A stretch of 36,157 nucleotides of DNA, from NCBI GenBank assembly GCA_035262905.1, contig DATFRX010000404.1, positions 1 to 36,157 on the forward strand, read 5' to 3'. This stretch comes from Nocardioidaceae bacterium (GTDB lineage: Bacteria > Actinomycetota > Actinomycetes > Propionibacteriales > Nocardioidaceae). Under the pieces are notes generated by a model that worked only from the letters and a program-made list of their open reading frames with translations, searched no databases and was not told the origin of the DNA. The translations under genes were made by a program, and so were the position numbers. Each line of letters begins with the position of its first letter. The first letter of the stretch is position 1. This document shows positions 1,964-31,280 of the stretch, piece by piece.

Positions 1964-2098
1964 CAAAGACCGGGGACCCGGGTGTCGGTACCCGAGAGCC
2001 GGCATCCGGGTTCCCATCCAACCGCCTCACCCGCGCGCACCACCGCACGGCGCGCGACTCGCAGATCAGTCATCACGATTCGAAAGGACAACCCGAAC

Positions 2099-3043
2099 AT
2101 GTGTTACGGATACGACGGAAAAGCGGCGCTCAAGGAGTCGCTCGCCCGGCGGGGCGTCGACCGCCGCAAGTTCCTTCGCGGGTCGCTGGTCGGGCTCGCC
2201 GGCGCCGGTCTGGCCGCGGCTGGCGTGGCCGGGTCGCCGGCATCGGCGGCGGCCGGCATGCGTCGGGTGCCGCGCGGACAGATCAGCATTCAGCTCTGGA
2301 CCGTGCGCAACGACCTGTTCGTCGATTACGACGCGACGCTCCGCTACATCGCCGGCTTCGGCTACTCGAAGGTGGAGCAGGCGCTCGGCTACTTCGGGCG
2401 CACGGCGGCGCAGCTGCGTGAGTTCCACGACAGCATCGGTATCCGGACGATGTCGAGTCACGACGGCATCGCCGGCTCCCAGGCCGACCTCGACGCGAAG
2501 ATCGAGAACGCGCTCACCCTCGGCCAGGCGTCGATCGTGGTGCCGTTCCTCAGCTCTCCGAACGAGGACGACTGGAAGATGTGGGCCGAGCAGATGAACA
2601 ACGAGGCGGTGGCGGCGCGGGCCGCGGGCCTGAAGTACGGCTACCACAACCACGCCCACGAGTTCAGCACCGACTTCGGCAACGGCCGCCGGCCGTGGGA
2701 CGTCCTCACCGAGGACCTCGACCCGCAGAACGTCCACCTGGAGATCGACATCTACTGGATCGTGACCGGCGGGATCCAAAGCGGTGACGGTGTCGACGAC
2801 CCGGAGGGCTTCGCGATCGAGCACATGCGGGACGCGCCGCAGCGGGTGCGGCAGTTCCACGTCAAGGACCGCAACCCCGCCAACGGCGACTTCGCCGACC
2901 CCGGCACCGGCCACATCGACTTCCCCAGGGTCTTCGCGGCCAACCCGGTCCAGCAGTACATCGTCGAGAACGACGAGCCCGACGTGACGCCGCGCCAGAC
3001 CGCAGGGGTGGGCTACAGCTACCTCCGCAACGTGCGGTTCTGA
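2099..3043 (+). CDS. Tat-exported sugar phosphate isomerase/epimerase (xylose-isomerase-like TIM barrel)
   Basis: ATG at 2099 follows GAAAGGA. Twin-arginine signal: RRKFLRGSLVGLAGAGLAAAGVAGSPASAAA. TIM-barrel-like motifs: GYSKVE, YHNHAHEF, LEIDIYW, FHVKD. The listed ORF start at 1982 is rejected as a GC-driven extension. Confidence 0.8.
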   Translation: MCYGYDGKAALKESLARRGVDRRKFLRGSLVGLAGAGLAAAGVAGSPASAAAGMRRVPRGQISIQLWTVRNDLFVDYDATLRYIAGFGYSKVEQALGYFGRTAAQLREFHDSIGIRTMSSHDGIAGSQADLDAKIENALTLGQASIVVPFLSSPNEDDWKMWAEQMNNEAVAARAAGLKYGYHNHAHEFSTDFGNGRRPWDVLTEDLDPQNVHLEIDIYWIVTGGIQSGDGVDDPEGFAIEHMRDAPQRVRQFHVKDRNPANGDFADPGTGHIDFPRVFAANPVQQYIVENDEPDVTPRQTAGVGYSYLRNVRF

Positions 3044-3167: not shown

Positions 3168-4679
3168 ATGCATCTGAACAAGCGTGTGACTCTTGCGGTG
3201 TTGCTGCCGCTCGCACTGGCAGCGCCGACGGTCGCGGTCGCGGCGCCGACCGAATCGGCCCCGACGGCGACCGCGACCTCGAGCGGCTCCGATCGGCAGG
3301 CGACCCTGCTCCGGTACGCCGAGGACACCTGGGCCTCGTTCGAGGCCATGACCGACGACGACAGCGGGCTGCCGGCCGATCGGCTCCATCTCGACGGCAC
3401 CCGCAGCATCCAGACGTCGACCACCAACATCGGCTCGTACCTGTGGAGCGCGGTGGTCGCCGAGGAGCTCGGCATCATCGGCCACGACGAGCTCATCGAC
3501 CGGCTCTCCACCACGCTGAGCACGATCGAGCGGATGGACCGGCACGAGGCGAGTGGGCAGTTCTTCAACTGGTACGACTATCGCACCGGCGAGAAGCTCA
3601 CGGTCTGGCCGCCGTCCGGGGCCCCGCTCGAGCCACAGCTGTCCTCGGTCGACAACGCCTGGCTCGCCACCGGTCTGCAGGTCGTCCGCGGCGCGGTGCC
3701 GGAGCTGGCCGACCGGGCGGGCGCGCTGTACGACGGGATGGACTTCGGCTTCTACTACGTGCCGGAGCGCAACCTCATCATGCGCGCCTACATACCGAGT
3801 ACGGGCGCGACGCCGTGCTGTTACGACACGCTCGGCGAGGTGCGGATGGCGAGCTGGATCGGCATCGGCAAGGGCGAGATCCCGCGCCGGCACTACTTCG
3901 GCCCGTGGCGTACCTTCCCGCCCTCATGCGACTTCTCCTGGACGTTCACCAGGCCGGTCGGCGAGTGGCGCAAGTACCTGGGCGTCGACGTGTTCGAGGG
4001 CGCCTACACCTATCGCGGCATGAAGATCGTGCCCAACTGGGGCGGCAGCATGTTCGAGGCCCTGATGGTGCCGTTGTTCGTGCCCGAGGAGGAGTGGGGA
4101 CGGCGCAGCTGGCGGATCAATCACCCGCTGTACGTCAAAGCCCAGATCGAGCACGGTCTCAACGAGGCGCAGTACGGTTACTGGGGCTTCTCGCCGGCCG
4201 ACGTGCCCGAGGGCGGCTATCGCACGTACGGCGTCTCCTGGCTCGGCATGGACCCCGACGGCTACCCGTCCAACAACGACGGCGTCGTGCCGCGACCCGG
4301 ATACGAAGGCTGTCCGGGACGCGAGCCGCAGCCACTGCCGAAGCCGGAGGACTACACCAACGGCGTCGTGACGCCACACGCGTCGTTCCTCGCGCTGCAC
4401 TACGCACCGGACGCGGCGATGGAGAACCTGGCCAATCTCGAGAACGACTTCGACATCTACACCGACTGGGGATTCCGTGACTCGGTCAACGTCGACACCG
4501 GCGTCGTCGCCCAGTGGTACCTCGCCCTGGACCAGGGCATGATCATGGCCGCCATCGGCAACGAGCTCGCCGACGACATGCTTCGCAAGGCCTTCGTGAC
4601 GCCCCAGTTCCTCGGGCGGCTGCGGCCCCTGATGGCCATGGAGGAGTTCGCCAACTTCGAGCCGGGCCGACGGCCGTGA
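3168..4679 (+). CDS. Secreted glucoamylase-family / DUF3131-like (alpha/alpha)6-barrel glycoside-hydrolase-like protein
   Basis: GGAGG lies 6 nt upstream of the ATG. Sec-type signal: MHLNKRVTLAVLLPLALAAPTVAVAAP. Motifs TTNIGSYLWS, FFNWYDYRTGEKL, SVDNAWLA, NWGGSMFEALMVPLF and WGFRDS are recalled from putative glucoamylase / beta-1,2-glucan-active families. The stop overlaps the next start (GTGA). Confidence 0.6.
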   Translation: MHLNKRVTLAVLLPLALAAPTVAVAAPTESAPTATATSSGSDRQATLLRYAEDTWASFEAMTDDDSGLPADRLHLDGTRSIQTSTTNIGSYLWSAVVAEELGIIGHDELIDRLSTTLSTIERMDRHEASGQFFNWYDYRTGEKLTVWPPSGAPLEPQLSSVDNAWLATGLQVVRGAVPELADRAGALYDGMDFGFYYVPERNLIMRAYIPSTGATPCCYDTLGEVRMASWIGIGKGEIPRRHYFGPWRTFPPSCDFSWTFTRPVGEWRKYLGVDVFEGAYTYRGMKIVPNWGGSMFEALMVPLFVPEEEWGRRSWRINHPLYVKAQIEHGLNEAQYGYWGFSPADVPEGGYRTYGVSWLGMDPDGYPSNNDGVVPRPGYEGCPGREPQPLPKPEDYTNGVVTPHASFLALHYAPDAAMENLANLENDFDIYTDWGFRDSVNVDTGVVAQWYLALDQGMIMAAIGNELADDMLRKAFVTPQFLGRLRPLMAMEEFANFEPGRRP

Positions 4680-5872
4680 CCGGCGCCGACAAGCCCGTTG
4701 CGGGTTCGAGCGAGTCTCGAACCGGAGTCTGGTTCGTCGGCGCCCGCGGATCGGTCGCCGCCACCGCCATCGCCGGCGCGCTGGCCGTTCGGTCCCGGTT
4801 GGCCGGCCAGGTCGGGCTGGTCAGCGAGCTGGAGCCGCTGGCCGTCGCCCGGCTGCCGGAGCTCGGCAGCTTCGTGTTCGGCGGTCACGAGGTGGCCGAC
4901 CTGTCGTTGCCGAAACGGGTCGAGGAGCTGGTCGCGGCGAAGGTCGTGCCGCACGAGATCTCGGCCGCGCTGACCGCGGAGCTGGCGTCGGTGGACAACG
5001 CCATCCGGCCGGGCATCCGGCGGGACGCGCGGCCCCAGCGAGAGTCGGCGGCTGCCCTCGAAGCCGATCTGCGCGCGTTCCGCGAGGAGCACGGGCTGGA
5101 GCGGGTCGTGGTGGTCGACGTGTCGAGCACCGAGCCGCCTCCGGTCGAGGCGCCGGAGCTCGAGTCGTTGGCCGCACTCGAGCGAGCCCTGGACGCCGGG
5201 GAGTCGCCGCTGCCGCCGAGCTCGCTCTATGCGTACGCGGCGTTCCGGGCCGGCTGTCCGGTAGTCGCGTTCACGCCGAGTCCCGGGCCGCGGCTGCCCG
5301 CGCTGGAGGAGCTGGCCGCCTCGGCCGGACTGCCGTGGGCGGGTTCGGACGGCAAGACCGGCGAGACGCTGGTCAAGACGGTGCTGGCACCGATGTTCGC
5401 GATGCGCGCGTTGCGGGTCCGTTCGTGGTCGTCGTACAACCTGCTCGGCGGTGGCGACGGTCGTACGCTGGCCGACCCGGCGAACGCCGCGAGCAAGACG
5501 GTGACCAAGGGCCAGAGTCTGGAGGCGATCCTCGGCCACCCGGTGGACGGGCCGCTGCACATCGACTACGTGGCCGATCTGGGCGACTGGAAGACCGCGT
5601 GGGACATGATCTCGTTCGAGGGCTTCCTCGGCACCCAGATGTCGTTGCAGTTCACCTGGACTGGCTGCGACTCGGCGCTGGCCGCTCCACTCGTGCTGGA
5701 CCTGGTCCGGCTGGTGGCGCGGGCGCATCAGGTCGGCGAGACCGGCCCGCTCGGGCCGCTGGGGTTCTTCTTCAAGAACCCGGCCGGCAGCGAGGTGCAT
5801 GCCCTCAGTGAGCAGTGGGCTGCGCTGCTGGACTGGTGTCAGCGACTGGGCGAGGCGGGCGACCGGACATGA
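4676..5872 (+). CDS. myo-inositol-1-phosphate (inositol-3-phosphate) synthase family protein, cluster-specific copy
   Basis: GTG at 4676 overlaps the upstream TGA. Rossmann-like N-terminus: VWFVGARGSVAATAIAG. Family motifs: SDGKTGETLVKTVLAPMF, SYNLLGGGDG, CDSALAAPLVLDLVRL. The listed start at 4514 is rejected because it overlaps the upstream gene. Confidence 0.8.
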   Translation: MTGADKPVAGSSESRTGVWFVGARGSVAATAIAGALAVRSRLAGQVGLVSELEPLAVARLPELGSFVFGGHEVADLSLPKRVEELVAAKVVPHEISAALTAELASVDNAIRPGIRRDARPQRESAAALEADLRAFREEHGLERVVVVDVSSTEPPPVEAPELESLAALERALDAGESPLPPSSLYAYAAFRAGCPVVAFTPSPGPRLPALEELAASAGLPWAGSDGKTGETLVKTVLAPMFAMRALRVRSWSSYNLLGGGDGRTLADPANAASKTVTKGQSLEAILGHPVDGPLHIDYVADLGDWKTAWDMISFEGFLGTQMSLQFTWTGCDSALAAPLVLDLVRLVARAHQVGETGPLGPLGFFFKNPAGSEVHALSEQWAALLDWCQRLGEAGDRT

Positions 5873-6753
5873 AGACCCGGGACCTGGTCGAGCTGGTCCG
5901 CCTGCCGGCGGCCTTGACCGTGCCCGGGGACTCACTGGCCGGTGCCGCTGCGGCGGGCTGGCCGTACGGGCGGCGCAGCTGGGCGCTGCCGGTGGCCTCT
6001 GCCTGCCTGTACTGGGCCGGGATGGCGCTCAACGACTACGCCGACCGGGACCTGGACCGTGTCGAGCGGCCGGAGCGGCCCATCCCGTCCGGCCGGGTCA
6101 GTCCGACCGAGGCGCTGGGAGTGGCCGCCGGGCTGACCGCGGCGGGCCTGCTGGTCGCCGGTCTCGTCGGCGGTCGACGAGGCCTGGGCGGCGCCGTCCG
6201 CGTGGCGGGAACGGCCTGGGCCTACGACCTGCTGGCCAAGCCCACCCCGGCCGGACCGGCGTGCATGGCGGCCGCCCGCGGTCTCGACGTACTGCTCGGC
6301 GCCGGAAGCCGTTGGCGCGAAGCCGCGCCCACCAGCGCCGCCGTCGCCGCCCACACGCTCGGAGTGACCGTGCTGAGCCGGGGCGAGGTGAACGGTGCGC
6401 GGCCGTCCGATGCCTACGCCGCGCTGATCGCGACGGCGACGGCAGCCTCGGCTGCTGCGCTCCCTGCTCGGCGACCGGACCGGCCGGCCCCGTCCTGGGG
6501 CGGCCGGGTAGCTCGATGGTCCGGCGCCGGCCTGGCTGCGGTGTACGCGACGGCGGTGGGCCGCAGTCAGCTGCGTGCGGCCGAGAAGCTGGACGCGGGC
6601 ACGGTGCGCAGCGCGACCGGGTCCGGGATCCGGGGCGTCATCCTGCTGCAGTCGGCGCTGGCCGCCCGATCCGGCTCGCCGGGTGTGGCCGGCGGTCTGC
6701 TGCTCGCCGGACCGGCGGCGCGGCTGGCATCCAAGGTGGTGTCGCCGACATGA
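5869..6753 (+). CDS. eboC: UbiA-family integral-membrane prenyltransferase (EboC-like / SCO3242-type)
   Basis: ATGA overlap with the upstream stop. First UbiA motif: ALNDYADRDLDRVERPERPIPSGRVS. The sequence is hydrophobic, Ala/Gly/Leu-rich and multi-span. It sits inside the ebo-type gene set. Confidence 0.75.
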   Translation: MKTRDLVELVRLPAALTVPGDSLAGAAAAGWPYGRRSWALPVASACLYWAGMALNDYADRDLDRVERPERPIPSGRVSPTEALGVAAGLTAAGLLVAGLVGGRRGLGGAVRVAGTAWAYDLLAKPTPAGPACMAAARGLDVLLGAGSRWREAAPTSAAVAAHTLGVTVLSRGEVNGARPSDAYAALIATATAASAAALPARRPDRPAPSWGGRVARWSGAGLAAVYATAVGRSQLRAAEKLDAGTVRSATGSGIRGVILLQSALAARSGSPGVAGGLLLAGPAARLASKVVSPT

Positions 6754-7616
6754 GCCTGCGCTTCGGCTACGGGACGAACGGCTTCGGCAGCCACCGCCTG
6801 GACGACGCCCTGGAGGTGATCGCCGGGCTCGGCTACGACGGCGTCGCGCTGACCGTCGATCAGCCGCACCTCGACCCGTTCGCGCCCGATCTGGCGGCCC
6901 GAACCGCCGCGGTCAGTCAGCGACTCGATCGGCTCGGTCTGGCCGTCGTGGTGGAGACCGGAGCGCGCTACGTCATGGACCCGTGGCACAAGCACGAGCC
7001 GACGCTGGTGTCGACCGACGGTTGGGAGCGGCGAGTGGACCTGCTGTGCCGAGCGGTACGCATCGCCTCCGATCTGGGGGCGGAGGCGGTGTCGTTCTGG
7101 TCCGGGATCCTGGACGAGGGCATCGGCGCCGACGACGGCTGGCAACGGCTGCTCGCCGGGGTGGAGACGGTGCTCGGCGAGGCGGAGCGGCACGACGTGG
7201 TGTGCGCGTTCGAACCCGAGCCGGGCATGTTCGTCGACACTGTCGCCGGGGTGCTGGAGCTGCGCCGTCGGCTCGGCTCGCCGGAGCGGCTGCGGGTGAC
7301 CCTGGACATCGGTCATTGCGTCTGCAACGAGCCGGGCACGGTCGCCGACTGCGTCCACCAGGCCGGTGCCCTGCTCGCCAACGTGCAGCTCGACGACATG
7401 GTCCCCGGCGTACACGAGCATCTCGAGTTCGGCGCCGGCGAAGTCGACCTGCCGAACGCGCTGGGTGCGCTGCTCGACGTCGGCTACTCGGGTCTGGCGG
7501 CCGTCGAGCTGCCACGACACGGACATGCCGCGCCAGTCGTCGCCGCCCGGTCTCTGGACACGCTGCGTACGGCACTCGCCCGGGCCCGGGGCGAGCGGGA
7601 AGCCGTCCGTACCTGA
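6750..7616 (+). CDS. Sugar phosphate isomerase/epimerase (xylose-isomerase-like TIM barrel), cytoplasmic
   Basis: ATGA overlap at 6750. Motifs: MSLRFGYGTNGF, GYDGVAL, FEPEPGMF, LDIGHC, HEHLEFGAGEVD. No signal peptide. Confidence 0.75.
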   Translation: MSLRFGYGTNGFGSHRLDDALEVIAGLGYDGVALTVDQPHLDPFAPDLAARTAAVSQRLDRLGLAVVVETGARYVMDPWHKHEPTLVSTDGWERRVDLLCRAVRIASDLGAEAVSFWSGILDEGIGADDGWQRLLAGVETVLGEAERHDVVCAFEPEPGMFVDTVAGVLELRRRLGSPERLRVTLDIGHCVCNEPGTVADCVHQAGALLANVQLDDMVPGVHEHLEFGAGEVDLPNALGALLDVGYSGLAAVELPRHGHAAPVVAARSLDTLRTALARARGEREAVRT

Positions 7617-7651
7617 GGACATCGATCGCCAGCCGAGGAGGCGCAGCGGAC

Positions 7652-8356
7652 ATGAGTACAACGTCGGATCACCTCACGCCGCACCTGGATGCCGACGCCC
7701 GACGCCGTCTGGAGGCGCTCGTACACGAGCTCGACGACGAGCCGGAGCGGATCTCGGTGCTGTTCCCGGCTGTGGGTCGGCGGGTGGCGCGCGGACCGTC
7801 CGACGCCGACGACCCGGACGGCGTCCGGCACCCACGACTCGAGGACGAGGCCCGGGTGGCGCTGCTGGCGACGCTGGCCGACGCCTGGCGGGACCGGCCG
7901 GAGCGGTTCGACCGTGAGATCGCCGAGCTCTACCGCTACGGCGACGCCGACGAGAAGCGCGGCGTGCTGCGGGCCCTGTCGGCGATCGACCCCGAGCCAG
8001 GCCCGGCCTCCCTGCCGCTGGTCGACGACGCACTGCGAACCAACGACGTGCGTCTGGTCGCCGCGGCGCTCGGGGCGTACGGAGCGCGACACCTCAGCGT
8101 CGAGGCCTGGCGCCAGGGCGTACTGAAGTGCCTGTTCGTGGGAGTCCCGCTCGATGCCGTCGCTCGCCTCGACGAGCGGGCCGACGCCGAGCTGGCTCGC
8201 ATGGTGGCCGACTACTGCCGCGAGCGCACCGCCGCCGGGCGATCGGTCCCGGCGGACGCGAGCCGGGTGCTCGAGCGGGTTCCTTGGAGCGCTGCGGATC
8301 GGCCGGAAGACGGCGGCAATCGGAGGACGGAGACCGAAGGACTGGAGGCCACCTGA
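7652..8356 (+). CDS. eboA: EboA-domain protein (function unknown)
   Basis: ATG at 7652 follows GAGGAGG. There is no recognisable catalytic motif. It is Ala/Arg/Asp-rich and predicted helical (VLFPAVGRRVARGP...). Its position directly upstream of the TatD-like gene matches ebo clusters. The assignment rests on context plus recalled family features. Confidence 0.55.
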   Translation: MSTTSDHLTPHLDADARRRLEALVHELDDEPERISVLFPAVGRRVARGPSDADDPDGVRHPRLEDEARVALLATLADAWRDRPERFDREIAELYRYGDADEKRGVLRALSAIDPEPGPASLPLVDDALRTNDVRLVAAALGAYGARHLSVEAWRQGVLKCLFVGVPLDAVARLDERADAELARMVADYCRERTAAGRSVPADASRVLERVPWSAADRPEDGGNRRTETEGLEAT

Positions 8357-9225
8357 TGCGCATCTTCGACCCGCACATCCACATGACGTCCCGCACCACC
8401 AACGACTACGAGGCGATGTACGCCGCCGGAGTCCGGGCGCTCGTCGAGCCGGCGTTCTGGCTGGGCCAGCCGCGCACCAGCATCGGCTCGTTCTGCGACT
8501 ACTTCGACGGTCTGGTCGGCTGGGAGCGGTTCCGGGCTGCCCAGTTCGGCATCCGGCACCACTGCACGATCGCGCTGAATCCGAAGGAGGCGAACGACCC
8601 GCAGTGCGCGGCGGTGCTCGACGTACTGCCGCGCTACCTGGCCAAGGACGGCGTCGTCGCGGTCGGGGAGGTCGGGTTCGACTCGATGACGGCCGAGGAG
8701 GAGAAGGCATTCGCGCATCAGCTCGAGTTGGCAGGCGAGCACGACCTGCCGGTGCTGGTGCACACGCCGCACCGGGACAAGGCCGCGGGAACCCGCCGGA
8801 CGCTGGAGCTGGTCGCGAGCTCCGGGTTGCCGCCGGAGCGGGTGCTGGTGGACCACCTCAACGAGCTGACCGTGCAGATGGTGGCCGAGTCCGGCTGCTG
8901 GATGGGGTTCTCGATCTATCCCGACACCAAGATGGACGAGCAGCGGATGGTCGGGATCCTGGCCGCGTACGGGCTGGACCGGATGATCGTCAACTCGGCG
9001 GCCGACTGGGGTCGCAGCGATCCGCTCAAGACGGCGAAGACCGGCTGGGCGATGCTCGACAACGGCTTCACCGACGACGACGTCGATCGCGTGCTGTGGC
9101 GAAACCCGGTGGAGTTCTACGCGCAGAGCGGACGGCTCCTGCTCGACGAGATCGAGGCCGAGCCCACGGCGACCTTCCAGGGCAACTCGGTGCTGCGCGG
9201 GCAGCGCCCGACCGAACAGGAGTGA
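8356..9225 (+). CDS. eboB: TatD-family metal-dependent hydrolase (EboB-like)
   Basis: TGATG overlap at 8356. Motifs: MRIFDPHIHM (metal-binding HxH), VAVGEVGFD, PVLVHTPH, MIVNSAADWG. Confidence 0.75.
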   Translation: MRIFDPHIHMTSRTTNDYEAMYAAGVRALVEPAFWLGQPRTSIGSFCDYFDGLVGWERFRAAQFGIRHHCTIALNPKEANDPQCAAVLDVLPRYLAKDGVVAVGEVGFDSMTAEEEKAFAHQLELAGEHDLPVLVHTPHRDKAAGTRRTLELVASSGLPPERVLVDHLNELTVQMVAESGCWMGFSIYPDTKMDEQRMVGILAAYGLDRMIVNSAADWGRSDPLKTAKTGWAMLDNGFTDDDVDRVLWRNPVEFYAQSGRLLLDEIEAEPTATFQGNSVLRGQRPTEQE

Positions 9226-9228
9226 GCC

Positions 9229-10395
9229 ATGCGGTTCCGGCACCCGGACGGCACGCTCGTCCATCTCGCGTACTGCACCAACGTCCACCCCACCGAGGAC
9301 TTCGAGGCGCTGCTCGACCAAGTGCGCCGCTACGGCGGTGGGGTGCGGGCCCGGCTCGGCGTCGACCGGCTGGGACTCGGTCTGTGGCTGCCGGCACCGG
9401 TTGCCGCGCATCTGGCCGACCACCCGGACGTCGAGCGGCTACGGGAAGCACTCGCGGACAGCGGACTCGAGGTGGTCACGCTCAACGCCTTCCCGTACGC
9501 CGGGTTCCACGATCCTGAGGTGAAGAAGGCCGTCTACCGGCCGGACTGGTGTGACTCGGCCCGGCTGGAGTACACGCTCAACTGCGCGGCTGTCCTGGCC
9601 AAGCTGCTGCCCGACGACGCGGCCCGCGGCAGCATCTCCACACTGCCGCTCGGCTGGCGCAGCCCGTGGTACGCCGACCGGCAGCATCAGGCCGAGGAGC
9701 ACCTGGCCAGGCTGGTGGAGGGCCTGGAGAAGCTGCAGGCCGAGACCGGCTGGGCGATCCGGGTCGGTCTCGAGCCGGAGCCCGGGTGTGCCGTGGAGAC
9801 CACCACCGATGCGGTGGAGCGGCTGGCCCAGGTGGACACCGACTGGATCGGCGTCTGTCTGGACACCTGCCATCTGGCGGTGGAGTTCGAGGACTCGGCG
9901 GCCGCCGTCGAGCGGTTGGCCTCGGCCGGCCTGCCCGTCGTGAAGGCGCAGGCGTCAGCGGCGCTGCAGGCGGCGACACCGGGCGAGGCAGCCACCCGGG
10001 AGGCGCTGGCCGACTACTCCGAGGACCGGTTCCTGCACCAGACCCGCGAGCACGCGGGCGGACGGACCATGGGCCGCGACGACCTGCCTGACGCGCTGGA
10101 CGGCCGGCGGGCGCTGCGTGGCCGCGGCCCCTGGCGGGTGCACTTCCACGTGCCGCTGCACGAACGGCCGGTTGAGCCGCTGGACGGCACCCATGACCAC
10201 CTGACGCAGACGCTGGCGGCCCTGCTTGGCGGGCCGACGGCGGTGACCGACCACATCGAGGTGGAGACGTACACCTGGTCGGTGCTGCCGGAGGCCCGGC
10301 GGCCGGACGGTCCGGACGGGCTGGTCGACGGCATCGCGGCCGAGCTGGGCTGGGCCCGCGACCGACTCGTCGAGCTCGGATTGGAGACGCTGTGA
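9229..10395 (+). CDS. eboE: EboE-like xylose-isomerase-fold TIM-barrel protein (metabolite traffic protein EboE family)
   Basis: ATG lies 3 nt after the upstream stop. The N-terminal LAYCTNVHPTEDFEAL and LEPEPGCAVE, CLDTCHLAVEFED, VHFHVPLH fit the about 390 aa EboE type. It is flanked by TatD-like and AP-family genes. Confidence 0.65.
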   Translation: MRFRHPDGTLVHLAYCTNVHPTEDFEALLDQVRRYGGGVRARLGVDRLGLGLWLPAPVAAHLADHPDVERLREALADSGLEVVTLNAFPYAGFHDPEVKKAVYRPDWCDSARLEYTLNCAAVLAKLLPDDAARGSISTLPLGWRSPWYADRQHQAEEHLARLVEGLEKLQAETGWAIRVGLEPEPGCAVETTTDAVERLAQVDTDWIGVCLDTCHLAVEFEDSAAAVERLASAGLPVVKAQASAALQAATPGEAATREALADYSEDRFLHQTREHAGGRTMGRDDLPDALDGRRALRGRGPWRVHFHVPLHERPVEPLDGTHDHLTQTLAALLGGPTAVTDHIEVETYTWSVLPEARRPDGPDGLVDGIAAELGWARDRLVELGLETL

Positions 10396-11783
10396 ACAAG
10401 CTGCTCGTCATCGACGTCGTGGGGCTCACCCCGCGGCTGCTGACCCACATGCCCCGGTTGAGTGCGCTGTCCGGCGACGGGTTCGACGCCGAGCTCGGCA
10501 CCGTGCTGCCAGCGGTCACATGCCCGGCCCAGTCGACCTTCCTGACCGGACTGACGCCGCAAGAGCACGGGATCGTCGGGAACGGCTGGTTCTTCCGCGA
10601 CCTGGGCGAGGTGTTGTTCTGGCGGCAGCACAACCGGCTCGTCGAGGGCGAGAAGGTCTGGGAGACCGCCCGCCGGACCTGGCCGGACTACCGGGTCGCC
10701 AACGTGTGCTGGTGGTACGCGATGGGATCCAGCACCGACACCACCATCACGCCGCGACCGGTCTACCACGCCGACGGACGCAAGTCGCCGGACTGCTGGA
10801 CCTGGCCGCCGTCGCTGCACGGCCGGCTGACCGGCCAGCTCGGCGCGTTCCCGCTGTTCAACTACTGGGGGCCGACGGCGTCGATCCAGAGCTCGAAATG
10901 GATCGTCGGAGCCACCCGGATGCTGCTGCCGGAGCACGATCTCACCCTGGCCTACATCCCGCATCTCGACTACGACCTGCAGCGCTATGGGCCGAAAAGT
11001 CAACAGGCCGTACAGGCCGCCCGTGACGTGGACGCCGCGCTGGCGCCGCTGCTGGACGACGCTCGCGACCAGGACGTCACGGTGGTGGTGCTCAGTGAGT
11101 ACGGCATCACCGATGTACGCCGTCCGGTGGACGTCAACCGGGCGCTGCGTCGAAACGGCCTGCTCCACGTACACACCAATGCCAGCGGCGAGCTGCTCGA
11201 CCCTTGGACGTCACGCGCGTTCGCCGTGGCCGACCATCAGCTGGCCCATGTGTACGTGCGGGATCCCGCCGACCTGGACCAGGTGCGGGAGCTGGTCGGT
11301 GCGCTGCCCGGCGTCGCAGAGGTGCTCGACGCGGACGGCAAGGCCGCGCATGGCCTCGACCACCCGCGGGCCGGCGAACTGGTCCTGGTGGCCGAGCCGG
11401 ACGCCTGGTTCACCTACTACTACTGGCTCGACGACGACCGCGCGCCGGACTTCGCCCGTGCGGTGGAGATCCACAAGAAGCCGGGCTACGACCCGGCCGA
11501 GCTGTTCCTCGACCCCGAGGACCGCTGGGTGAAGCTGCGGGCCGGAGCCGGGCTGGCCCGCAAGAAGCTCGGCTTCCGGTATGCGATGAACGTGGTCCCG
11601 CTGGACCCCGCGCCCGTGCGCGGCAGCCACGGCCGGCTGCCCGCCGACCCGGCGGACGGACCGATGCTGCTGTGCTCCGACCCGAGTGCCGCCCGGGAGC
11701 GGTTCGAGGCGACCGAGGTCCGCAACCTGCTGCTCCAGCTGGCCGGCGCACGGGTGGAAGCCGAGCGGCCGGTACCGGGATGA
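10392..11783 (+). CDS. eboF: Alkaline-phosphatase-superfamily nucleotide pyrophosphatase/phosphodiesterase (EboF-like)
   Basis: GTGA overlap at 10392. N-terminal LLVIDVVGLTPRLL and catalytic-Thr region LPAVTCPAQSTFLTGLTPQEHGIVGNGWF. Also YIPHLDY and SHGRLP. Confidence 0.75.
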   Translation: MNKLLVIDVVGLTPRLLTHMPRLSALSGDGFDAELGTVLPAVTCPAQSTFLTGLTPQEHGIVGNGWFFRDLGEVLFWRQHNRLVEGEKVWETARRTWPDYRVANVCWWYAMGSSTDTTITPRPVYHADGRKSPDCWTWPPSLHGRLTGQLGAFPLFNYWGPTASIQSSKWIVGATRMLLPEHDLTLAYIPHLDYDLQRYGPKSQQAVQAARDVDAALAPLLDDARDQDVTVVVLSEYGITDVRRPVDVNRALRRNGLLHVHTNASGELLDPWTSRAFAVADHQLAHVYVRDPADLDQVRELVGALPGVAEVLDADGKAAHGLDHPRAGELVLVAEPDAWFTYYYWLDDDRAPDFARAVEIHKKPGYDPAELFLDPEDRWVKLRAGAGLARKKLGFRYAMNVVPLDPAPVRGSHGRLPADPADGPMLLCSDPSAARERFEATEVRNLLLQLAGARVEAERPVPG

Positions 11784-12841
11784 CCAGAGCGGCGGCCGAG
11801 CCGGGGATCGCCAGGGACCCGGGCGACGGTCCGATCGTGGCCGGCCTCGCGGGGCGGCTGCTCGCGGAGACGCGCGAGCAGATCGAGCCCGCACTCCGGT
11901 CGGCAATCGACGGTCTGCCGCCCAGGGTGCGGTTGGCGGCCGGCTATCACGCCGGGCTGTGGGACGCCGAGGGCCGGCCCGCCGGCCACCCGGGCAAGGC
12001 GCTGCGGCCGGCGCTGGTGATGAGCTGCGGGCGCGCTGCCGCCGGTGACGACGTCGGAGCCTCGGAACGGCTGATCGCCGCGGCAGTGGCGGTCGAGCTC
12101 ATGCACGACTTCACGCTGCTGCACGACGACGTGATGGACGGTGACGCGGTACGCCGGCATCGGCCCGCGACCTGGGACGTGTTCGGCGTGGCGTACGCCG
12201 TCCTCACCGGCGACACCCTGCTGGCGCTGGCGCTGAACCAGCTGTCCCGGCTCGGTGCCGGCATCGAGACGCTGGCGGCCACGCTGCTCGAACTGTGCGT
12301 CGGCCAGGGCACCGATCTGGAGGTCCAGGGCCGATCCGACGACGCCGACCTGGATCGATGCCTGGCGCTGGCGGAGGCGAAGACCGGCGCTCTGCTGGGA
12401 TGTGCCTGTCAGCTGGGCGCGATGGTGGTGCGCCCGGGGGAGTGCGAGACGGCGCCGTACCGGGAGTTCGGCCGCCATCTCGGAGTGGCGTTCCAGCTCA
12501 CCGACGACCTGCTGGGCATCTGGGGCGACCCGGAGCTGACCGGCAAGCCGGTGCACGCCGACCTGGCAGCGCGAAAGCTGACCCTGCCGGTCACCGCGGC
12601 GTTGACCTCCGGGACCAGTGCGGGGGAGCGGCTGCGGGTGCTGTACGCCGACAGCAGGTCGAACGGAACCGCTCGGATGGCCGAGCTCGTCGAGCGGGCC
12701 GGTGGCCGGGCCTGGGCGCAGGCCGAGGCCGACCGGCGGGCCGGCCTGGCGCTGGAGGCACTGGAGGAGGCCGGGCCGGAGCCGGCCGCCGCGGCCGAGC
12801 TGCGGGCGCTGGTCGAGCTCGCACGTCGGCGGGACCTCTGA
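11780..12841 (+). CDS. Polyprenyl diphosphate synthase (trans-isoprenyl, short/medium chain; GGPP/FPP-synthase-like)
   Basis: ATGA overlap at 11780. First Asp-rich motif LLHDDVMDGDAVRRHRP, second Asp-rich motif FQLTDDLLGIWGD, and KPVHADLAARKLTLP. Confidence 0.85.
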   Translation: MTRAAAEPGIARDPGDGPIVAGLAGRLLAETREQIEPALRSAIDGLPPRVRLAAGYHAGLWDAEGRPAGHPGKALRPALVMSCGRAAAGDDVGASERLIAAAVAVELMHDFTLLHDDVMDGDAVRRHRPATWDVFGVAYAVLTGDTLLALALNQLSRLGAGIETLAATLLELCVGQGTDLEVQGRSDDADLDRCLALAEAKTGALLGCACQLGAMVVRPGECETAPYREFGRHLGVAFQLTDDLLGIWGDPELTGKPVHADLAARKLTLPVTAALTSGTSAGERLRVLYADSRSNGTARMAELVERAGGRAWAQAEADRRAGLALEALEEAGPEPAAAAELRALVELARRRDL

Positions 12842-12937: not shown

Positions 12938-13106
12938 AAGGAAACCGCGAAACCACCGGAAGTGCTAGCGATGACATTATTTAGCTACTTTTCGGCAGAA
13001 CCAGGTCCGTCACAGCGGCATGACTCTCGGGTGGTCACCGCGATGCCGGCTCCTTTGGGATCCGCCCCTGCGCCTCGGGACGCAGCCCTTCTTGAGGAGG
13101 AGTCCG

Positions 13107-13181
13107 ATCCGGGCATCCCGGCCCGGTCGCTCACCGCAACCCTCACCCCGGCGGGCGCTTAGTGCTCGCTTCGGTCGCAGC
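13107..13181 (+). pseudogene. Decayed 5-prime remnant of a Tat-signal TIM-barrel gene (start codon position now ATC)
   Basis: AGGAGGAG-N4-ATC at 13095-13109 aligns with AGGAGGAG-N4-ATG of the 17607 gene. The translated remnant IRASRPGRSPQPSPRRALSARFGRS resembles MRASKSNPVRRALSRRRFLGTT. No barrel-coding sequence follows. Confidence 0.45.
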
Positions 13182-13212
13182 CGATTGCCCTCGTACGGCG
13201 GCCGAAGCGAGC
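13164..13212 (+). other. 15 bp stem hairpin in the 5-prime leader of the 13263 gene
   Basis: GCTCGCTTCGGTCGC (13164-13178) pairs with GCGGCCGAAGCGAGC (13198-13212), with one G-U pair and a 19 nt loop. It lies 50 nt upstream of the start codon and has no U-tract. Confidence 0.5.
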
Positions 13213-13262
13213 GGGGAACTCCCGCCATACCGCAACGACTCAGCGGTCGAGAAAGGAATCCC

Positions 13263-16200
13263 ATGTTCGAACGTACCAAGCCGCGTCCCCGAGGACGCGC
13301 GCCCTCGAGACCACGGCGCCAGGCGCTGGCCCTGGCGGCCGGCGCCGTGCTGGCGCTCGGCCTGACCACCATCCCGGCCCAGGGACAAGCACAGTCCCAA
13401 CCGGCCGCGGTGGCCGACGACGCCAGCGCGGTGAACGTGCTGGTCTTCCACGGCCCGGCCGAGGAGCAGGACGACCCGGTGCTGGACGCCGCAGCGGCGA
13501 TCGAGCAACTGGGCAGCAGCGGCGGATTCGACGTCGACGTCTCGACCGACCCGTCGGTGTTCAGCGCCGAGGGTCTGCGGCCGTACCGCGGTGTGGTGTT
13601 CCTGTCCGCCGTCGGAGCGGAGCTGAGCAACGACCAGGAGCGGGAGCTCGAGGACTACATCGAGGCCGGTGGCGGCTTCCTGGGCATCCACGACGCCGCC
13701 AGGGCGCAGGAGCGCTCGCAGTGGTTCGGTGGCCTGATCGGCGCGCGTCCGGTCGGCGCGCTGCCCGAGCCGGAGCCGGTCGTGTCGAGTGCGACCACCG
13801 CGAGTGGCGACAACCCGCCGAACGAGACCAGGTTCCAGCTGGTCGACGGCGACATCGGCACCAAGTGGCTGACCTTCAATCCCACCGGCTGGGTGGCCGT
13901 CCGGCTCCAGGAGGCGGCCGCGATCAACCAGTACGCGCTGACGTCGGCCAACGACTCCCCCGAGCGCGACCCGCGCAACTGGGCGCTGCAGGGGTCCAAC
14001 GACGGCTCGACCTGGACCGACCTGGACACCCGGAGCGGGGAGAGCTTCCCGAACCGGTTCCAGACCAAGGACTACTCGTTCGAGAACACCACGTCGTACG
14101 AGTGGTACCGGATCGACATCAGGGCGAACGCCGGCGGCCCGCTCACCCAGCTGGCCGAGCTCGAGCTCTTCGCCGGTGACGCGACGCCACCTGAGGACCC
14201 GCCGGTGCAGGAGGCGACGGTCAACTTCGTCGACCGGCAGCACCCGGCCAACGACGGGCTGCCGCTCACCGAGACCCGAGACGACCAGTGGCTGAACTGG
14301 GACACCAACCCGGTCGGCCAGGTCCACACCGTCGCGCAGGTGGACGAGTCGACCTACGACCCGGGTCGGGGCGCCAACGGTCCGTTCCATCCGATCTCGT
14401 GGTGCCGCGACTACGACGGCGGCCGGTCGTTCTACACCGGCATGGGAGCCACCGCCGACGGCTACGGCGACGGCGACTTCCAGGACCACTTGATGGGTGC
14501 CATCCAGTGGACGACCGGCATGGTCCGCGGCGACTGCCAGGCGACCATCGCGTCGAACTACCGGATCGAGCGACTCGTCACCCAGGGTCCGGCGCCGTTC
14601 GATCTCAACGACATCGGCGAGATCCACGGCCTGGACGTCGCGGCTGACGGCTCGGTGTTCTACATCGGCAAGTCGGCCTGCCCGTCCGGCCCGATCGCTT
14701 CGTGGGACAACCCGAACGTCGGCCTCGGCTGCGGCACCGTGCACCGGTGGGACCCCGACACCAAGCAGCCCAAGCTACTCGCGACGCTGCCGGCGTTCGG
14801 TAACCGCGGCAGTGGCGACGAGTCGGTCAAGGCCGAGGACGGCCTGGTCGGCATCGCGCTCGACCCGAAGTTCCTGCAGAACGGCTGGATCTACCTGTAC
14901 TGGATGCCGCAGGCGTCGGTCGACCGCACCCGGCACACCGGCGAGCGGACGATCTCGCGGTTCACCTACGACAAGCAGACCAACACGATCGACATGAACA
15001 GCCGGGTCGACCTGCTCAAGTGGGAGATCCAGGTGCACTTCTGCTGCCATGCCGGTGGCGGGATGGACTTCGACTCCGACGGCAACCTCTACATCGGTGT
15101 CGGCGACTCCAACTCGTCCGGCGGCTCCAACGGTTACTCGGGCAACAACTGGACCCAGGAGTTCGGTGGCTACTCCTACCAGGACGCCCGCCGTACGGCA
15201 GGCAACACCAACGACCTGGACGGCAAGATCCTGCGGATCCACCCCGAGCCCGACGGCACGTACACGATCCCGGACGGCAACCTGTTCCCCGAGTCGGAGG
15301 ACCCGGGCAACAAGACCCGGCCGGAGATCTATGTGATGGGCGTACGCAACATCTCGACGCTCTTCGTCGACCCGACGACCGACCTGCTCCACGCGGCCTG
15401 GGTCGGCCCGGACGCCGGCAGCCCGAGCCCGGAGCTGGGGCCGGCGAAGTACGAGACCGCCACCATCATCACGTCGGCCGGCAACCAGGGATGGCCCTAC
15501 TGCATGGGCAACGGCCAGCCGTACCGCGACCGGAGCAACGAGGACGCGAGCATCCTCACCGGCTGGTACGACTGCGACAATCTGCAGAACAACTCGCCAC
15601 GCAACACCGGCCTGGTGAACCTGCCGCCGGCGCGGGACAACATGATCTGGTACTCGCCGCAGGGTGGCGGACCGGTGTTCCCGGAGCGGTCCGACGGCAG
15701 TGGGATCCCGACGTACAACAACACGGAAACCACGTTCACCGAGCCGTACCTGCGGGGCGGCTGCCAGGCAATCATGACCGGCCCGGTCTATCACCAGTCG
15801 CTGATCACGCAGAAGAACAGTGACGTCGCGTGGCCGTCGTACTGGGAGGACAAGTGGTTCCTCGGTGACGAGTGCAACCCGAACAACCGGGTCGCGCTCA
15901 CCGTCGATCCCGACGGGATCGAGGACGCGCAGCCCCCGGTGTTCGCCGAGAGCCTGCGCGAGATCATCCCCGGCGGCGCTGCCAACCTGCAGAGCTGGAT
16001 GATGACCTCACGGTTCGGTCCGGACGGCGCCCTCTACATGGGCGACTACGGGGGCGGCTTCTTCAGCCTCAACCAGAACCAGAAGCTGATTCGGGTCGTC
16101 TACGACGGTGGTCCGCCGACTCCGGGTCCCACCGCGTCGTCGGTCGCCGTCAACAACACGCCGATGACGATCGCGTTCAGCGGCGAGAAGTCCGGCGGCG

Positions 16201-17261: not shown

Positions 17262-17270
17262 ATCCATCGT

Positions 17271-17309
17271 CCGGTCGGCGCGAACCGAGTCCCGGTTCGC
17301 GCCGACCGG
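17271..17309 (+). terminator. Strong hairpin terminator after the 13263-17261 gene
   Basis: CCGGTCGGCGCGAACCG (17271-17287) pairs perfectly with CGGTTCGCGCCGACCGG (17293-17309). This gives a 17 bp stem and a 5 nt loop, starting 10 nt after the TAG. Confidence 0.75.
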
Positions 17310-17375
17310 CGTTAGCGGTTGGCGGTCGTACTGTGCGACCGACCGGATGTGCGACCGAGCGGAGCCGGTCACTCC

Positions 17376-17442
17376 GTTTCGAAAATTACTTTCGAAAGTT
17401 CGTTCATGACTATTGCTACTAACTGTAATTAGCCCGTAACTT
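17376..17442 (+). promoter_or_regulatory. AT-rich promoter/operator region, copy B
   Basis: Candidate -35 TTGCTA (17413-17418), an 18 nt spacer, then -10 TAACTT (17437-17442). Perfect palindromes TTTCGAAA (17377-17384) and ACTTTCGAAAGT (17388-17399) lie about one helical turn apart upstream of the -35. Confidence 0.45.
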
Positions 17443-17606
17443 TAGGGGTCAGCACCACCGGAGGGGCTGGCTATGGCGATAGTTTCGTTACCTCTCGGAA
17501 AAACCTTCGTCCGCAAGGCGTGCCTACTCGGGCTCAGCGCGACGCCGGCTCTTCTCGCGTCCGCCCCCTGCGCCATTCGGCGCGGCCAGCTTCTAGGAGG
17601 AGCACG

Positions 17607-18905: not shown

Positions 18906-18923
18906 TCCCCTTCAGCAACGGCA

Positions 18924-18971
18924 ACGGCTCCGATCGCGATGTCGATTGGCCTCGAACGCGACCGGAGCCGT
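18924..18971 (+). other. Intercistronic hairpin (possible partial terminator or mRNA-stability element)
   Basis: ACGGCTCCGATCGCG (18924-18938) pairs with CGCGACCGGAGCCGT (18957-18971). There are 14 base pairs plus one mismatch and an 18 nt loop. Only about 30 nt containing an RBS separate it from the 19001 start. Confidence 0.45.
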
Positions 18972-19000
18972 GAGCAGGAACCCCTAGAAAGAGGACTCCT

Positions 19001-22718: not shown

Positions 22719-22801
22719 GTCGATCCAGTGAACGAACCTCGCGGATCGGCCGTGTGATGGCAATCCCGCCGTCATCAAGGCGCACGCGAGAGGAGCGCCG
22801 A

Positions 22802-26621: not shown

Positions 26622-26695
26622 CCGTCCGCATGTCCCCAAGCCCCCCGCTGTATGAGCTGGACCTGCCGGTCCGTCACTTCATCAAGGAGTAACCG

Positions 26696-27736: not shown

Positions 27737-27743
27737 TCGGCTC

Positions 27744-27786
27744 GCGCCGCCCGGGTTGCCCGCGACTTGGCAACCCGGGCCGGCGC
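27744..27786 (+). terminator. Hairpin after the binding-protein gene (terminator or transcript-stabilising element)
   Basis: GCGCCG-CCCGGGTTGCC pairs with GGCAACCCGGG-(C)-CGGCGC. The core is 11 bp plus a 6 bp extension with one bulge, and the loop is 8 nt. It starts 8 nt after the TGA. Only 55 nt separate it from the next start. Confidence 0.6.
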
Positions 27787-27841
27787 GGCTCCGAGGGAGA
27801 CTGACGACAGCGCTGGACGGGGAAGACCGTGAGGGGAATCG

Positions 27842-29050
27842 ATGAGACAAGACAATAAGGAGACATTCGGGGTGGGGATGGTGGGCTACGCCTTCATGGG
27901 CGCGGCCCACTCCCACGCCTGGCGGTCGGCCGGCCGTTTCTTCCCGCTGCCGTTGGACATCGACATGGCCGTCGTGTGCGGTCGTCAGGAGTCCGGCGTC
28001 GCAGAGGCCCGGCACCGCCTCGGCTGGCGGGAGTACGAAACCGACTGGCACCGACTGCTCGACCGCGACGACGTGAATCTGGTCGACGTCTGTACGCCGG
28101 GCGACACCCATGCCGAGATCGCGATCGCCGCGCTCGAGGCAGGCAAGCACGTGCTCTGCGAGAAGCCGCTCGCCAACACGGTCGCCGAAGCCGAGGCGAT
28201 GGCGGCGGCAGCTGCGTCCGCGCGCGAGCGAGGGGTGCGCTCGATGGTCGGCTTCACCTATCGCCGGGTGCCAGCCATCGGCCTCGCCCGCCGGCTGGTG
28301 GCCGACGGCAGGATCGGCACGATCCGGCATGTCCGCGCGCAGTACCTCCAGGACTGGATCACCGACCCGGAGGCGCCGCTGAGCTGGCGGCTGCAGAAGG
28401 ACCGGGCCGGCAGCGGAGCCCTCGGCGACATCGGCGCGCACATCGTCGACCTGACGCAGTTCATTGCCGGCGAGCAGCTCACCGGTGTGTCGGCGATGCT
28501 CGAGACGTTCATCAAGGAGCGGCCGATCCCCACCGAGGCCAGCGGACTGTCCGGCGTCGCCGGCACCGAGCGCGGCGAGGTGACGGTCGACGACGCGGCC
28601 ATCTTCCTGGGCCGCTTCGACGGCGGCGCCCTTGCCACGTTCGAGGCCACTCGCTTCGCCGCCGGGCGCAAGAACTCGATCCGGATCGAGCTCAACGGTT
28701 CGCTCGGCAGTCTGGCCTTCGACTTCGAGGACATGAACGTCCTGAACTTCTACGACAACACCGAGAACTCGGCGACCGCCGGGTTCCGGCGCATCCTCGT
28801 GACCGAGCCGGTCCATCCGTACGTCGCGGCCTGGTGGCCGCCGGGCCATCTGCTCGGCTACGAGCACGCGTTCACGCACCAGGTGGTCGACCTGGTCAAC
28901 GCGCTCGCCGATGGAACCGACCCGGCGCCGTCGTTCGCCGACGGGCTGCAGGTGCAGCGGGTCCTGGCGGCGGTGGAGGCGAGTGCGGCCAAGGACAGTG
29001 TGTGGACGGAGGTCAACCACTCGACCGCTCCGTCCGGGACGACGGTGTAG
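27842..29050 (+). CDS. Gfo/Idh/MocA-family NAD(P)-dependent oxidoreductase
   Basis: N-terminal Rossmann fold FGVGMVGYAFMGAAHSHAW, the family motif VLCEKPLANT, and the C-terminal alpha/beta oligomerisation region. Confidence 0.85.
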   Translation: MRQDNKETFGVGMVGYAFMGAAHSHAWRSAGRFFPLPLDIDMAVVCGRQESGVAEARHRLGWREYETDWHRLLDRDDVNLVDVCTPGDTHAEIAIAALEAGKHVLCEKPLANTVAEAEAMAAAAASARERGVRSMVGFTYRRVPAIGLARRLVADGRIGTIRHVRAQYLQDWITDPEAPLSWRLQKDRAGSGALGDIGAHIVDLTQFIAGEQLTGVSAMLETFIKERPIPTEASGLSGVAGTERGEVTVDDAAIFLGRFDGGALATFEATRFAAGRKNSIRIELNGSLGSLAFDFEDMNVLNFYDNTENSATAGFRRILVTEPVHPYVAAWWPPGHLLGYEHAFTHQVVDLVNALADGTDPAPSFADGLQVQRVLAAVEASAAKDSVWTEVNHSTAPSGTTV

Positions 29051-29062
29051 GGAGACGAACCG

Positions 29063-30244: not shown

Positions 30245-30272
30245 CGCCGAATCCACGCGAAGGAGCGCTGCG

Positions 30273-31280
30273 ATGACCCGACCGATCACCCTGTTCACCG
30301 GCCAGTGGGCCGACCTGCCGTTCGAGGAGATGTGCCGGCTGGCGTCGGAGTGGGGCTATGACGGCCTGGAGATCGCCTGCTGGGGCGACCATCTCGACGT
30401 CTGGCAGGCCGCCGAGGACGACGGCTACGTCAAGGCGAAGCTGGACCTGCTCGAGCAGCACAACCTCAAGGTCTGGACGATCAGCAACCACCTCAAAGGC
30501 CAGGCGGTCTGCGACGACCCGATCGACGAGCGCCACCAGGCGATCCTGCCGGCCCGGATCTGGGGCGACGGCGATCCCGAGGGAGTGCGGCAGCGGGCCG
30601 CCGAGGAGATGAAGGTGACCGCCCGGGCCGCGAGCCGGCTCGGCGTCGACACCGTCGTCGGGTTCACCGGGTCGTCGATCTGGAAGTACGTCGCAATGTT
30701 CCCGCCGGTCTCACAGGACCAGGTGGACGCCGGCTACCAGGACTTCGCCGACCGGTGGAACCCGATCCTGGACGTGTACGACGACGAGGGAGTCCGCTTC
30801 GCGCACGAGGTACATCCGAGCGAGATCGCCTACGACTACTGGACCACGGCCCGTACGCTCGAGGCGATCGACCATCGGCCCGCGTTCGGGCTGAACTGGG
30901 ATCCCAGCCACTTCGTGTGGCAGGACCTGGACCCGGTCGGGTTCATCTGGGACTTCAAGGACCGGATCTACCACGTCGACTGCAAGGACACCAAGCGCCA
31001 GATCGGCAACGGGCGCAACGGCCGGCTCGGATCGCATCTGGCCTGGGCCGACCCGCGTCGGGGCTGGGACTTCGTGTCGACCGGCCACGGCGACGTCCCG
31101 TGGGAGGCGTCGTTCCGGATGCTCAACCACATCGGCTACCAGGGTCCGATCTCGGTCGAGTGGGAGGACGCCGGCATGGACCGGCTGCGCGGTGCGCCGG
31201 AGGCCCTGGAGTTCGTCCGATCGCTGGCCTTCGACGCTCCGGAGGCGGCCTTCGACGCCGCATTCAGCACCGACGGCTGA
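30273..31280 (+). CDS. Sugar phosphate isomerase/epimerase (xylose-isomerase-like TIM barrel), cytoplasmic
   Basis: ATG at 30273 follows AAGGAG. Motifs: [47 protein letters not shown]. No signal peptide. Confidence 0.8.

Follow-up and report, generated by a model that had tools for sequence, protein, structure and literature searches.

Which enzyme makes the cyclitol in an ebo gene cluster that has no eboD? The question is raised by the window, by which is meant the whole stretch of 36,157 nucleotides that was analysed, contig C404 of a soil-actinomycete metagenome-assembled genome (MAG; G000, 4.15 Mb, 542 contigs, 92.6% complete). Canonical ebo clusters carry EboD, a sugar-phosphate cyclase resembling 3-dehydroquinate synthase (DHQS), as a first-pass annotation of the DNA had stated and as the literature agrees. 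The same annotation placed an inositol-phosphate synthase (MIPS) in the cyclase slot of the window cluster, and both the Pfam domains and the searches for DHQS-like sequences bear this out. Taken as a whole, the evidence makes it probable that the product of the gene at 4676-5872 is a working MIPS, NAD-dependent and of the archaeal/general bacterial type. It would be the second MIPS of the genome, dedicated to an ebo operon of the Actinomycetota type, in which it replaces EboD.

A MIPS gene at the head of an ebo operon

4676..5872, plus strand: predicted cluster-dedicated MIPS of 398 aa, archaeal type, corresponding to 'ino1' in Actinomycetota-type ebo clusters (PF07994, PF01658, match to 1u1i, catalytic residues)

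The encoded protein is an inositol-phosphate-synthase homologue, as had been claimed, and both MIPS domains of Pfam score far above threshold: PF07994 with E 2.4e-43 and 149 bits (cut-off 25) over residues 16-387, and PF01658 with 6.1e-32 and 110 bits (cut-off 27) over residues 229-333. The motifs quoted in the first-pass annotation could all be located, GKTGETLVK at 226-234, NLLGGGDG at 255-262 and DSALAAPLVLDL at 332-343. The shadow open reading frames on the opposite strand gave no Pfam match. The nearest public relatives are encoded by Nocardioidaceae MAGs (85-86% protein identity), and the best solved relative is the MIPS of Archaeoglobus fulgidus (1u1i, E 1.3e-71, residues 18-391), which aligns with the window MIPS from end to end (1u1i, 3qvs, 3qvt). 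In the glycine-rich NAD-binding N-terminus, VWFVGARGSVA of the window protein aligns to VWLVGAYGIVS of 1u1i, and G22, A23 and G25 are invariant in the multiple alignment. Matches to Mycobacterium tuberculosis Ino1 (1gr0, E 1.2e-6) and to the five-membered-cyclitol synthase Ari2 (6k96, E 3.4e-13, residues 184-382) were also obtained. The A. fulgidus enzyme stands outside any ebo context and supplies inositol for di-inositol-phosphate osmolytes and lipids.

The MIPS gene is followed, in a nearly gapless operon, by genes for a UbiA-family prenyltransferase, a TIM barrel of 288 aa, EboA, EboB, EboE, EboF and a polyprenyl synthase. Its GTG start codon sits within the GTGA that terminates an upstream glucoamylase/DUF3131-like gene, and its TGA shares bases (ATGA) with the start codon of UbiA (ATG, 5869), so that the MIPS is translationally coupled to the ebo operon. 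The core set of eboA and eboB, eboC-like UbiA, eboE and eboF is contiguous from 5869 to 11783, and the extra 288-aa barrel that the first-pass annotation had remarked on at 6750-7616 is real.

5869..6753, plus strand: UbiA-family prenyltransferase of the SCO3242 family, EboC-like (NF045897, 361 bits, cut-off 260)
6750..7616, plus strand: TIM288, a xylose-isomerase-like TIM barrel of 288 aa (PF01261, 1.2e-34)
7652..8356, plus strand: EboA-domain protein (NF035938, 160 bits, cut-off 50)
8356..9225, plus strand: EboB, TatD-family hydrolase (PF01026, 5e-14; TIGR00010)
9229..10395, plus strand: EboE TIM-barrel protein (NF035939, 431.7 bits, cut-off 250)
10392..11783, plus strand: EboF, type I phosphodiesterase/nucleotide pyrophosphatase (PF01663, 1e-63)
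11780..12841, plus strand: polyprenyl diphosphate synthase (PF00348, 9e-53; IdsB-like, 281 bits, below cut-off)

Absence of eboD and the Actinomycetota-type cluster

No eboD is present. A search of the whole genome with PF01761 returned a single hit, aroB (TIGR01357), on contig C503 beside the shikimate kinase gene aroK, and tblastn with aroB found no DHQS-like sequence either in the window or in a set of 82 related loci. Of this set, 80 were collected by scanning for relatives of the window MIPS, and two were taken from related genomes. On the PF01761 and tblastn results a hidden eboD was rejected.

A preprint of May 2026 (bioRxiv 10.64898/2026.05.21.724671) describes an Actinomycetota-type ebo cluster without eboD, flanked by ino1, ino2 and ino3, and proposes a bypass from glucose-6-phosphate through inositol-3-phosphate to the EboD product. 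TIM288 is probably one of its ino2/ino3, a putative cyclitol isomerase or dehydratase. Clusters of this type in Saccharomonospora sp. CNQ-490, Streptomyces coelicolor (SCO3242-SCO3243) and Streptomyces sp. NBC_00028 (plasmid NZ_CP108294.1) have the same order as the window and lack eboD, with MIPS identities to the window of 55-86%. In the S. coelicolor annotation the pair stands as SCO3243/SCO3242, a MIPS and a 'transferase', and on NZ_CP108294.1 RefSeq names an inositol-3-phosphate synthase, an SCO3242-family prenyltransferase, a sugar-phosphate-isomerase TIM barrel, EboA, TatD, EboE and a phosphodiesterase. The interpretation of the window gene as a dedicated MIPS is therefore supported and not new, having been published already as a genomic inference and annotated in RefSeq. 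The window lineage, an uncultured genus, differs from these clusters in having the glucoamylase/DUF3131 gene coupled to MIPS and a closely related 3' polyprenyl synthase. The window itself differs in that the genes for a GFO/IDH/MocA dehydrogenase and for an IolE-like barrel are not adjacent but 15-18 kb off.

Canonical eboABCDEF clusters (Bacteroidota, Cyanobacteriota, eustigmatophyte plastids; Pseudomonas EDB) have the EboA, EboB, EboC-like UbiA, EboE and EboF families in common with the window, and in both a sugar-phosphate cyclase presumably supplies the C6 cyclitol of a prenylated product. The window departs from them in its Rossmann-fold MIPS, which would take the role of EboD with the phosphate retained, and in the extra TIM barrel. 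Further precedents for MIPS were sought. BE-40644 was rejected, EEVS being used there instead, and no gene cluster is reported in the papers on saccharoquinoline and streptoquinoline.

Conservation of the MIPS-headed layout

UbiA and TIM288 directly follow MIPS in 70 of the 82 loci, TIM288 lying between UbiA and EboA; EboA, EboB and EboE are present in 69 and EboF in 67, in constant order. Such MIPS-headed loci occur in at least seven actinomycete families (Nocardioidaceae, Jiangellaceae, Pseudonocardiaceae, Micromonosporaceae and Streptosporangiaceae among them, and also in Streptomyces) and in Rubrobacter, and about half of the loci that depart from the order are truncated contigs. The MIPS-headed layout without eboD is standard in actinomycetes. 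The polyprenyl synthase, which likely supplies the prenyl donor, is linked in 34 of the 82 loci, at just 29-38% identity in most of them.

In three Streptomyces loci (L063, L066, L077) a single reading frame, uninterrupted by stop codons, covers both TIM288 and EboA, which indicates fusion proteins. The frames match the actinobacterial EboA fused to a xylose-isomerase-like domain that was reported by Yurchenko et al. (2016), a paper that makes no mention of inositol or MIPS. Beyond the Actinomycetota, a Planctomycetes MAG (L101, JACQXL010000134.1, 8001-14870) carries an ebo-like cassette in the order MIPS, TatD, TIM barrel, UbiA, methyltransferase, unknown, phosphodiesterase; its MIPS belongs to a different clade of the tree described below and has Asn at position 259.

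A housekeeping Ino1 is probably encoded elsewhere

An ordinary explanation would be that the window MIPS is the housekeeping synthase for mycothiol and phosphatidylinositol, lying beside ebo genes by chance, and it takes its force from the MAG itself: in the 542 contigs of this 92.6%-complete assembly no second MIPS was detectable besides the window gene. The congeners G001 and G002, however, each have two MIPS genes, a TIGR03450-type Ino1 and an ebo-type gene. The G001 Ino1 (L090, G001:C19:24000-43900, at 9961-11031 of that locus) scores 699.7 bits on TIGR03450, and the other MIPS of that genome is the orthologue of the window gene. When the 20 kb around G001 ino1 was mapped on G000, the syntenic flanks stopped at the ends of contigs C261 and C222, between which about 4.4 kb, holding ino1, is unassembled. 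An assembly gap is therefore the best explanation for the missing ino1 of G000.

The two kinds of MIPS are also far apart in sequence, as expected from the earlier claim of a cluster-dedicated enzyme distinct from the housekeeping copy. On the mycothiol-Ino1 equivalog TIGR03450 the window MIPS reaches 34.1 bits, below the cut-off of 638 bits (34 against 700 bits for the housekeeping copy of G001). In a tree of 138 rows (IQ-TREE quick search, LG+G4) it falls in a separate actinomycete clade of 43 rows (SH-aLRT 98), from which housekeeping Ino1 is parted by two branches of 2.1 substitutions, or about 4 substitutions per site; the immediate sister (P0008) is from a capsule-export locus. Housekeeping Ino1 (TIGR03450; 1gr0) belongs to the same superfamily and its core Asp, Lys and Asn residues align with those of the window MIPS, yet it forms a separate deep branch and is present with or without ebo genes. 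The first-pass annotation had named, as telling against it, a sole MIPS that groups with housekeeping Ino1: the first part holds for the MAG as an assembly artefact, and the second does not hold.

Distribution points the same way. EboE was found in 10 of 41 related genomes, and eight of these ten have a second MIPS, 3.6-4.7 kb from EboE, as against none of the 31 genomes without EboE, counts that are descriptive and carry no statistical test since the genomes are kin. Among the genomes compared, the ebo-type MIPS is confined to those with EboE. On the TIGR03450 scores, the two-copy congeners and the contig-gap mapping, the housekeeping reading was rejected and is held to be highly improbable.

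The two EboE genomes without a second MIPS (G026 and G030; loci L096 and L097) belong to an 8-Mb genus of the same order. Within 10 kb, one has an EboB fragment with EboE and EboF and the other EboE alone, and MIPS, UbiA, TIM288 and EboA are absent from both. Paralogues of the ebo-type MIPS also occur away from ebo genes in Nocardioides (L036, L037, L054, L057, L081) and Streptomyces (L047, L073, L072). All five genomes searched among those with a MIPS homologue unlinked to ebo have EboE elsewhere, and since the EboE regions of two of them (L098, L100) hold a complete MIPS-headed ebo cluster, the unlinked copies in these two are extra paralogues. The unlinked Nocardioides paralogues adjoin an IolE-like TIM barrel (TIGR04379, 46 bits). 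In one closed Nocardioidaceae genome (L099, G022:C1) the ebo-linked MIPS at about 11614-12752 is split into two frames near 12018, a frameshift or pseudogene, and the cluster is otherwise intact.

The active site and glycine 259

In the HMMER alignment of the window MIPS with that of A. fulgidus the numbering is identical from residue 205 on, and D225, N255, D261, K274, K278, D304, K306, D332 and K367 have the same numbers in both. We take these nine residues to be the catalytic set from mutagenesis and structure work on the A. fulgidus enzyme, with support from two mutant entries in PDB, 3qvw (K278A) and 3qvx (K367A), which mark two catalytic columns of the alignment. All of the Lys, Asp and Asn residues are kept in the window protein, where a loss of catalytic Lys or Asp would have spoken against an active synthase. 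Across 40 clade members, 29 of them ebo-linked and 11 other, eight of the nine positions (D225, N255, D261, K274, K278, K306, D332, K367) are invariant and position 304 is D or E.

The sole clade-diagnostic difference is Gly259 (codon 5450-5452), found in 40 of 40 members of the ebo-type clade, which read GGGDG. At this position Asn (GNxDG) stands in 85 of 90 other MIPS representatives and in housekeeping Ino1, and A. fulgidus MIPS has D259. Gly259 tracks the clade and not the ebo context. As an ebo-specific specialisation it was rejected, given that G259 also occurs in P0008, the sister from the capsule locus, and that P0004, a MIPS from an ebo-like locus of Planctomycetes, carries Asn.

Such a substitution invites the idea of altered chemistry, in which a MIPS-fold cyclase would use mannose-6-phosphate or another sugar phosphate, or would release an inosose-phosphate before the final reduction, and so give a keto-cyclitol more directly. 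We consider this unlikely. The ebo pathway elsewhere does begin with an inosose and not with inositol, the clade is distinct and has an invariant G259 in an otherwise near-invariant G-N-x-D-G motif, and MIPS-fold enzymes with other products exist in PDB (6k96, Ari2, a five-membered cyclitol phosphate). On the other side, the window protein keeps every residue that a complete MIPS cycle is known to require, it is far closer to a true MIPS (E 1e-71) than to Ari2 (E 3e-13), G259 is not tied to ebo, and co-conserved TIM barrels are what would be expected if plain inositol phosphate needs tailoring. Ari2 resembles the window MIPS in having the MIPS fold and in its recruitment to a cluster for a natural product, but its similarity is weak and nothing in the window MIPS suggests five-membered ring chemistry. 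It is accordingly doubtful that the G259-marked clade releases a keto-cyclitol phosphate or acts on another hexose phosphate. If it did, it would lead directly to the cyclitol precursor of the ebo pathway, by a second route that uses no DHQS-type enzyme.

The prenyltransferase and the flanking genes

Several genes outside the core set recur beside ebo clusters or head the operon in the window.

3168..4679, plus strand: glucoamylase/DUF3131-like protein, its stop overlapping the MIPS start (PF10091, 8e-16; PF11329)
1982..3043, plus strand: TIM barrel of 353 aa with an Arg-rich N-terminus (PF01261; sugar-phosphate-isomerase-type barrels 8tcd/8tcs in PDB, 4e-20)
27842..29050, plus strand: GFO/IDH/MocA oxidoreductase (Pfam; levoglucosan-dehydrogenase-like 366 bits and IolG 113 bits, both below cut-off)
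30273..31280, plus strand: TIM335, an IolE-like (inosose dehydratase) TIM barrel of 335 aa (PF01261, 8e-44; TIGR04379, 39 bits, below cut-off)

The glucoamylase/DUF3131-like gene is restricted, among the 82 loci, to the four closest (L004-L006 and L085; L006 and L085 are overlapping stretches of one G001 contig), and it looks like a recent lineage-specific insertion heading the operon. Its coupling to MIPS and the properties of the UbiA protein raise a different use of the cyclitol, namely that MIPS supplies inositol for another purpose, such as a prenyl-inositol lipid, for which UbiA would prenylate inositol phosphate as its acceptor or head group, or a glycoconjugate handled by the glucoamylase-like protein. 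MIPS and UbiA are the tightest unit, with overlapping codons; UbiA, at 115 bits, falls outside the EboC equivalog of NCBI (NF035940, cut-off 250); and in the window lineage a secreted glycoside-hydrolase-like gene is coupled to MIPS. We rate this use as quite unlikely. The Saccharomonospora homologue, which the preprint treats as EboC, farnesylates a 6,7,8-trihydroxyquinaldate ester in vitro, and the same strain makes saccharoquinoline and thallusin, to both of which ebo is linked there (bioRxiv 10.64898/2026.05.21.724671). The glucoamylase-like gene is found in the four closest loci only, and the full set of EboA, EboB, EboE and EboF is conserved with MIPS, as in cyclitol-based ebo clusters.

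Among the neighbours that recur in the 82 loci are genes for GFO/IDH/MocA (39 loci), the IolE-like 335-aa TIM barrel (31), ThuA (30) and GSDH-PKD (28). The GFO/IDH/MocA protein of the window is 72% identical to the product of a gene beside MIPS in L026, and in many other actinomycetes its orthologues immediately precede the ebo MIPS. TIM335 is 85% identical to the product of the gene adjoining the MIPS paralogue in L036, and orthologues elsewhere flank the ebo cluster or MIPS paralogues. In the window both belong to a region (22754-31280) that also has a ROK regulator, a sugar ABC transporter (ATPase, permease, binding protein) and a bona fide xylose isomerase gene (xylA; TIGR02631, 635 bits). 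TIM335 is followed by an ATP-grasp protein (31359-32927; BesA-like, 152 bits, well below cut-off).

Genes for GSDH-PKD (quinoprotein-like) and ThuA flank the window cluster (2-1963 and 13020-22549). They flank ebo in 28-30 of the 82 loci, from several families (L004-L008, L016, L020-L025, L043, L044 and others), and because of this recurrence the keto-sugar genes next to the cluster may share a function with the ebo/inositol pathway and not form a separate system. Homologues of the 353-aa TIM barrel lie near the ebo cluster in 20 of the 82 loci; the barrel may be an accessory protein, or it may belong to the adjacent keto-sugar system. In L095, the plasmid NZ_CP108294.1 of Streptomyces sp. NBC_00028, the ebo MIPS is immediately preceded by a gene annotated 'ScyD/ScyE family protein' (6626-7825) and has a multicopper oxidase gene downstream, an arrangement that recalls the cyanobacterial association of scytonemin and ebo genes.

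Predicted pathway

We infer the substrate and product of the window MIPS, and all steps downstream of it, as follows. Judged from its sequence, the MIPS would cyclise glucose-6-phosphate to inositol-3-phosphate, which would then be dephosphorylated, with EboB or EboF as candidates. Oxidation, dehydration or isomerisation by TIM288, possibly with a GFO/IDH/MocA dehydrogenase and an IolE-like barrel, may give a keto- or deoxy-cyclitol equivalent to the EboD product. This cyclitol and aspartate-derived carbon would form a trihydroxyquinoline acid, and UbiA would prenylate the quinoline acid to a meroterpenoid of the saccharoquinoline/thallusin type, using a prenyl donor made by the downstream polyprenyl synthase.

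Five points weigh against a plain MIPS that feeds this pathway. Gly259 replaces the usual Asn. Inositol phosphate would need several further steps, because the pathway requires a keto- or deoxy-cyclitol, and the enzymes for them are not firmly identified. In the preprint the ino route is a proposal only. The acceptor of UbiA could differ from that of the characterised EboC, because UbiA misses the NCBI EboC cut-off. Finally, the GFO/IDH/MocA and TIM335 genes, 15-18 kb off, could equally be parts of a sugar-catabolic operon, and their role in the pathway is uncertain because they stand behind the ROK regulator, the sugar ABC transporter and xylA.

Implications for annotation and for the ebo pathway

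For annotation, the window gene should be read as a pathway-dedicated MIPS and not as the Ino1 of mycothiol and phosphatidylinositol synthesis, and the lack of ino1 in the MAG as a gap in the assembly. The recurrent GFO/IDH/MocA, IolE-like TIM barrel, ThuA and GSDH genes suggest candidates for the tailoring enzymes that the route still lacks. Among 'orphan' gene clusters of bacteria, ebo is one of the most widespread, and a link to thallusin, a morphogen of algae, has recently been made. Actinomycete ebo clusters would arrive at the precursor cyclitol with an enzyme of another fold, and would therefore give an independent handle on the early steps of the pathway, from inositol phosphate to the quinoline precursor.

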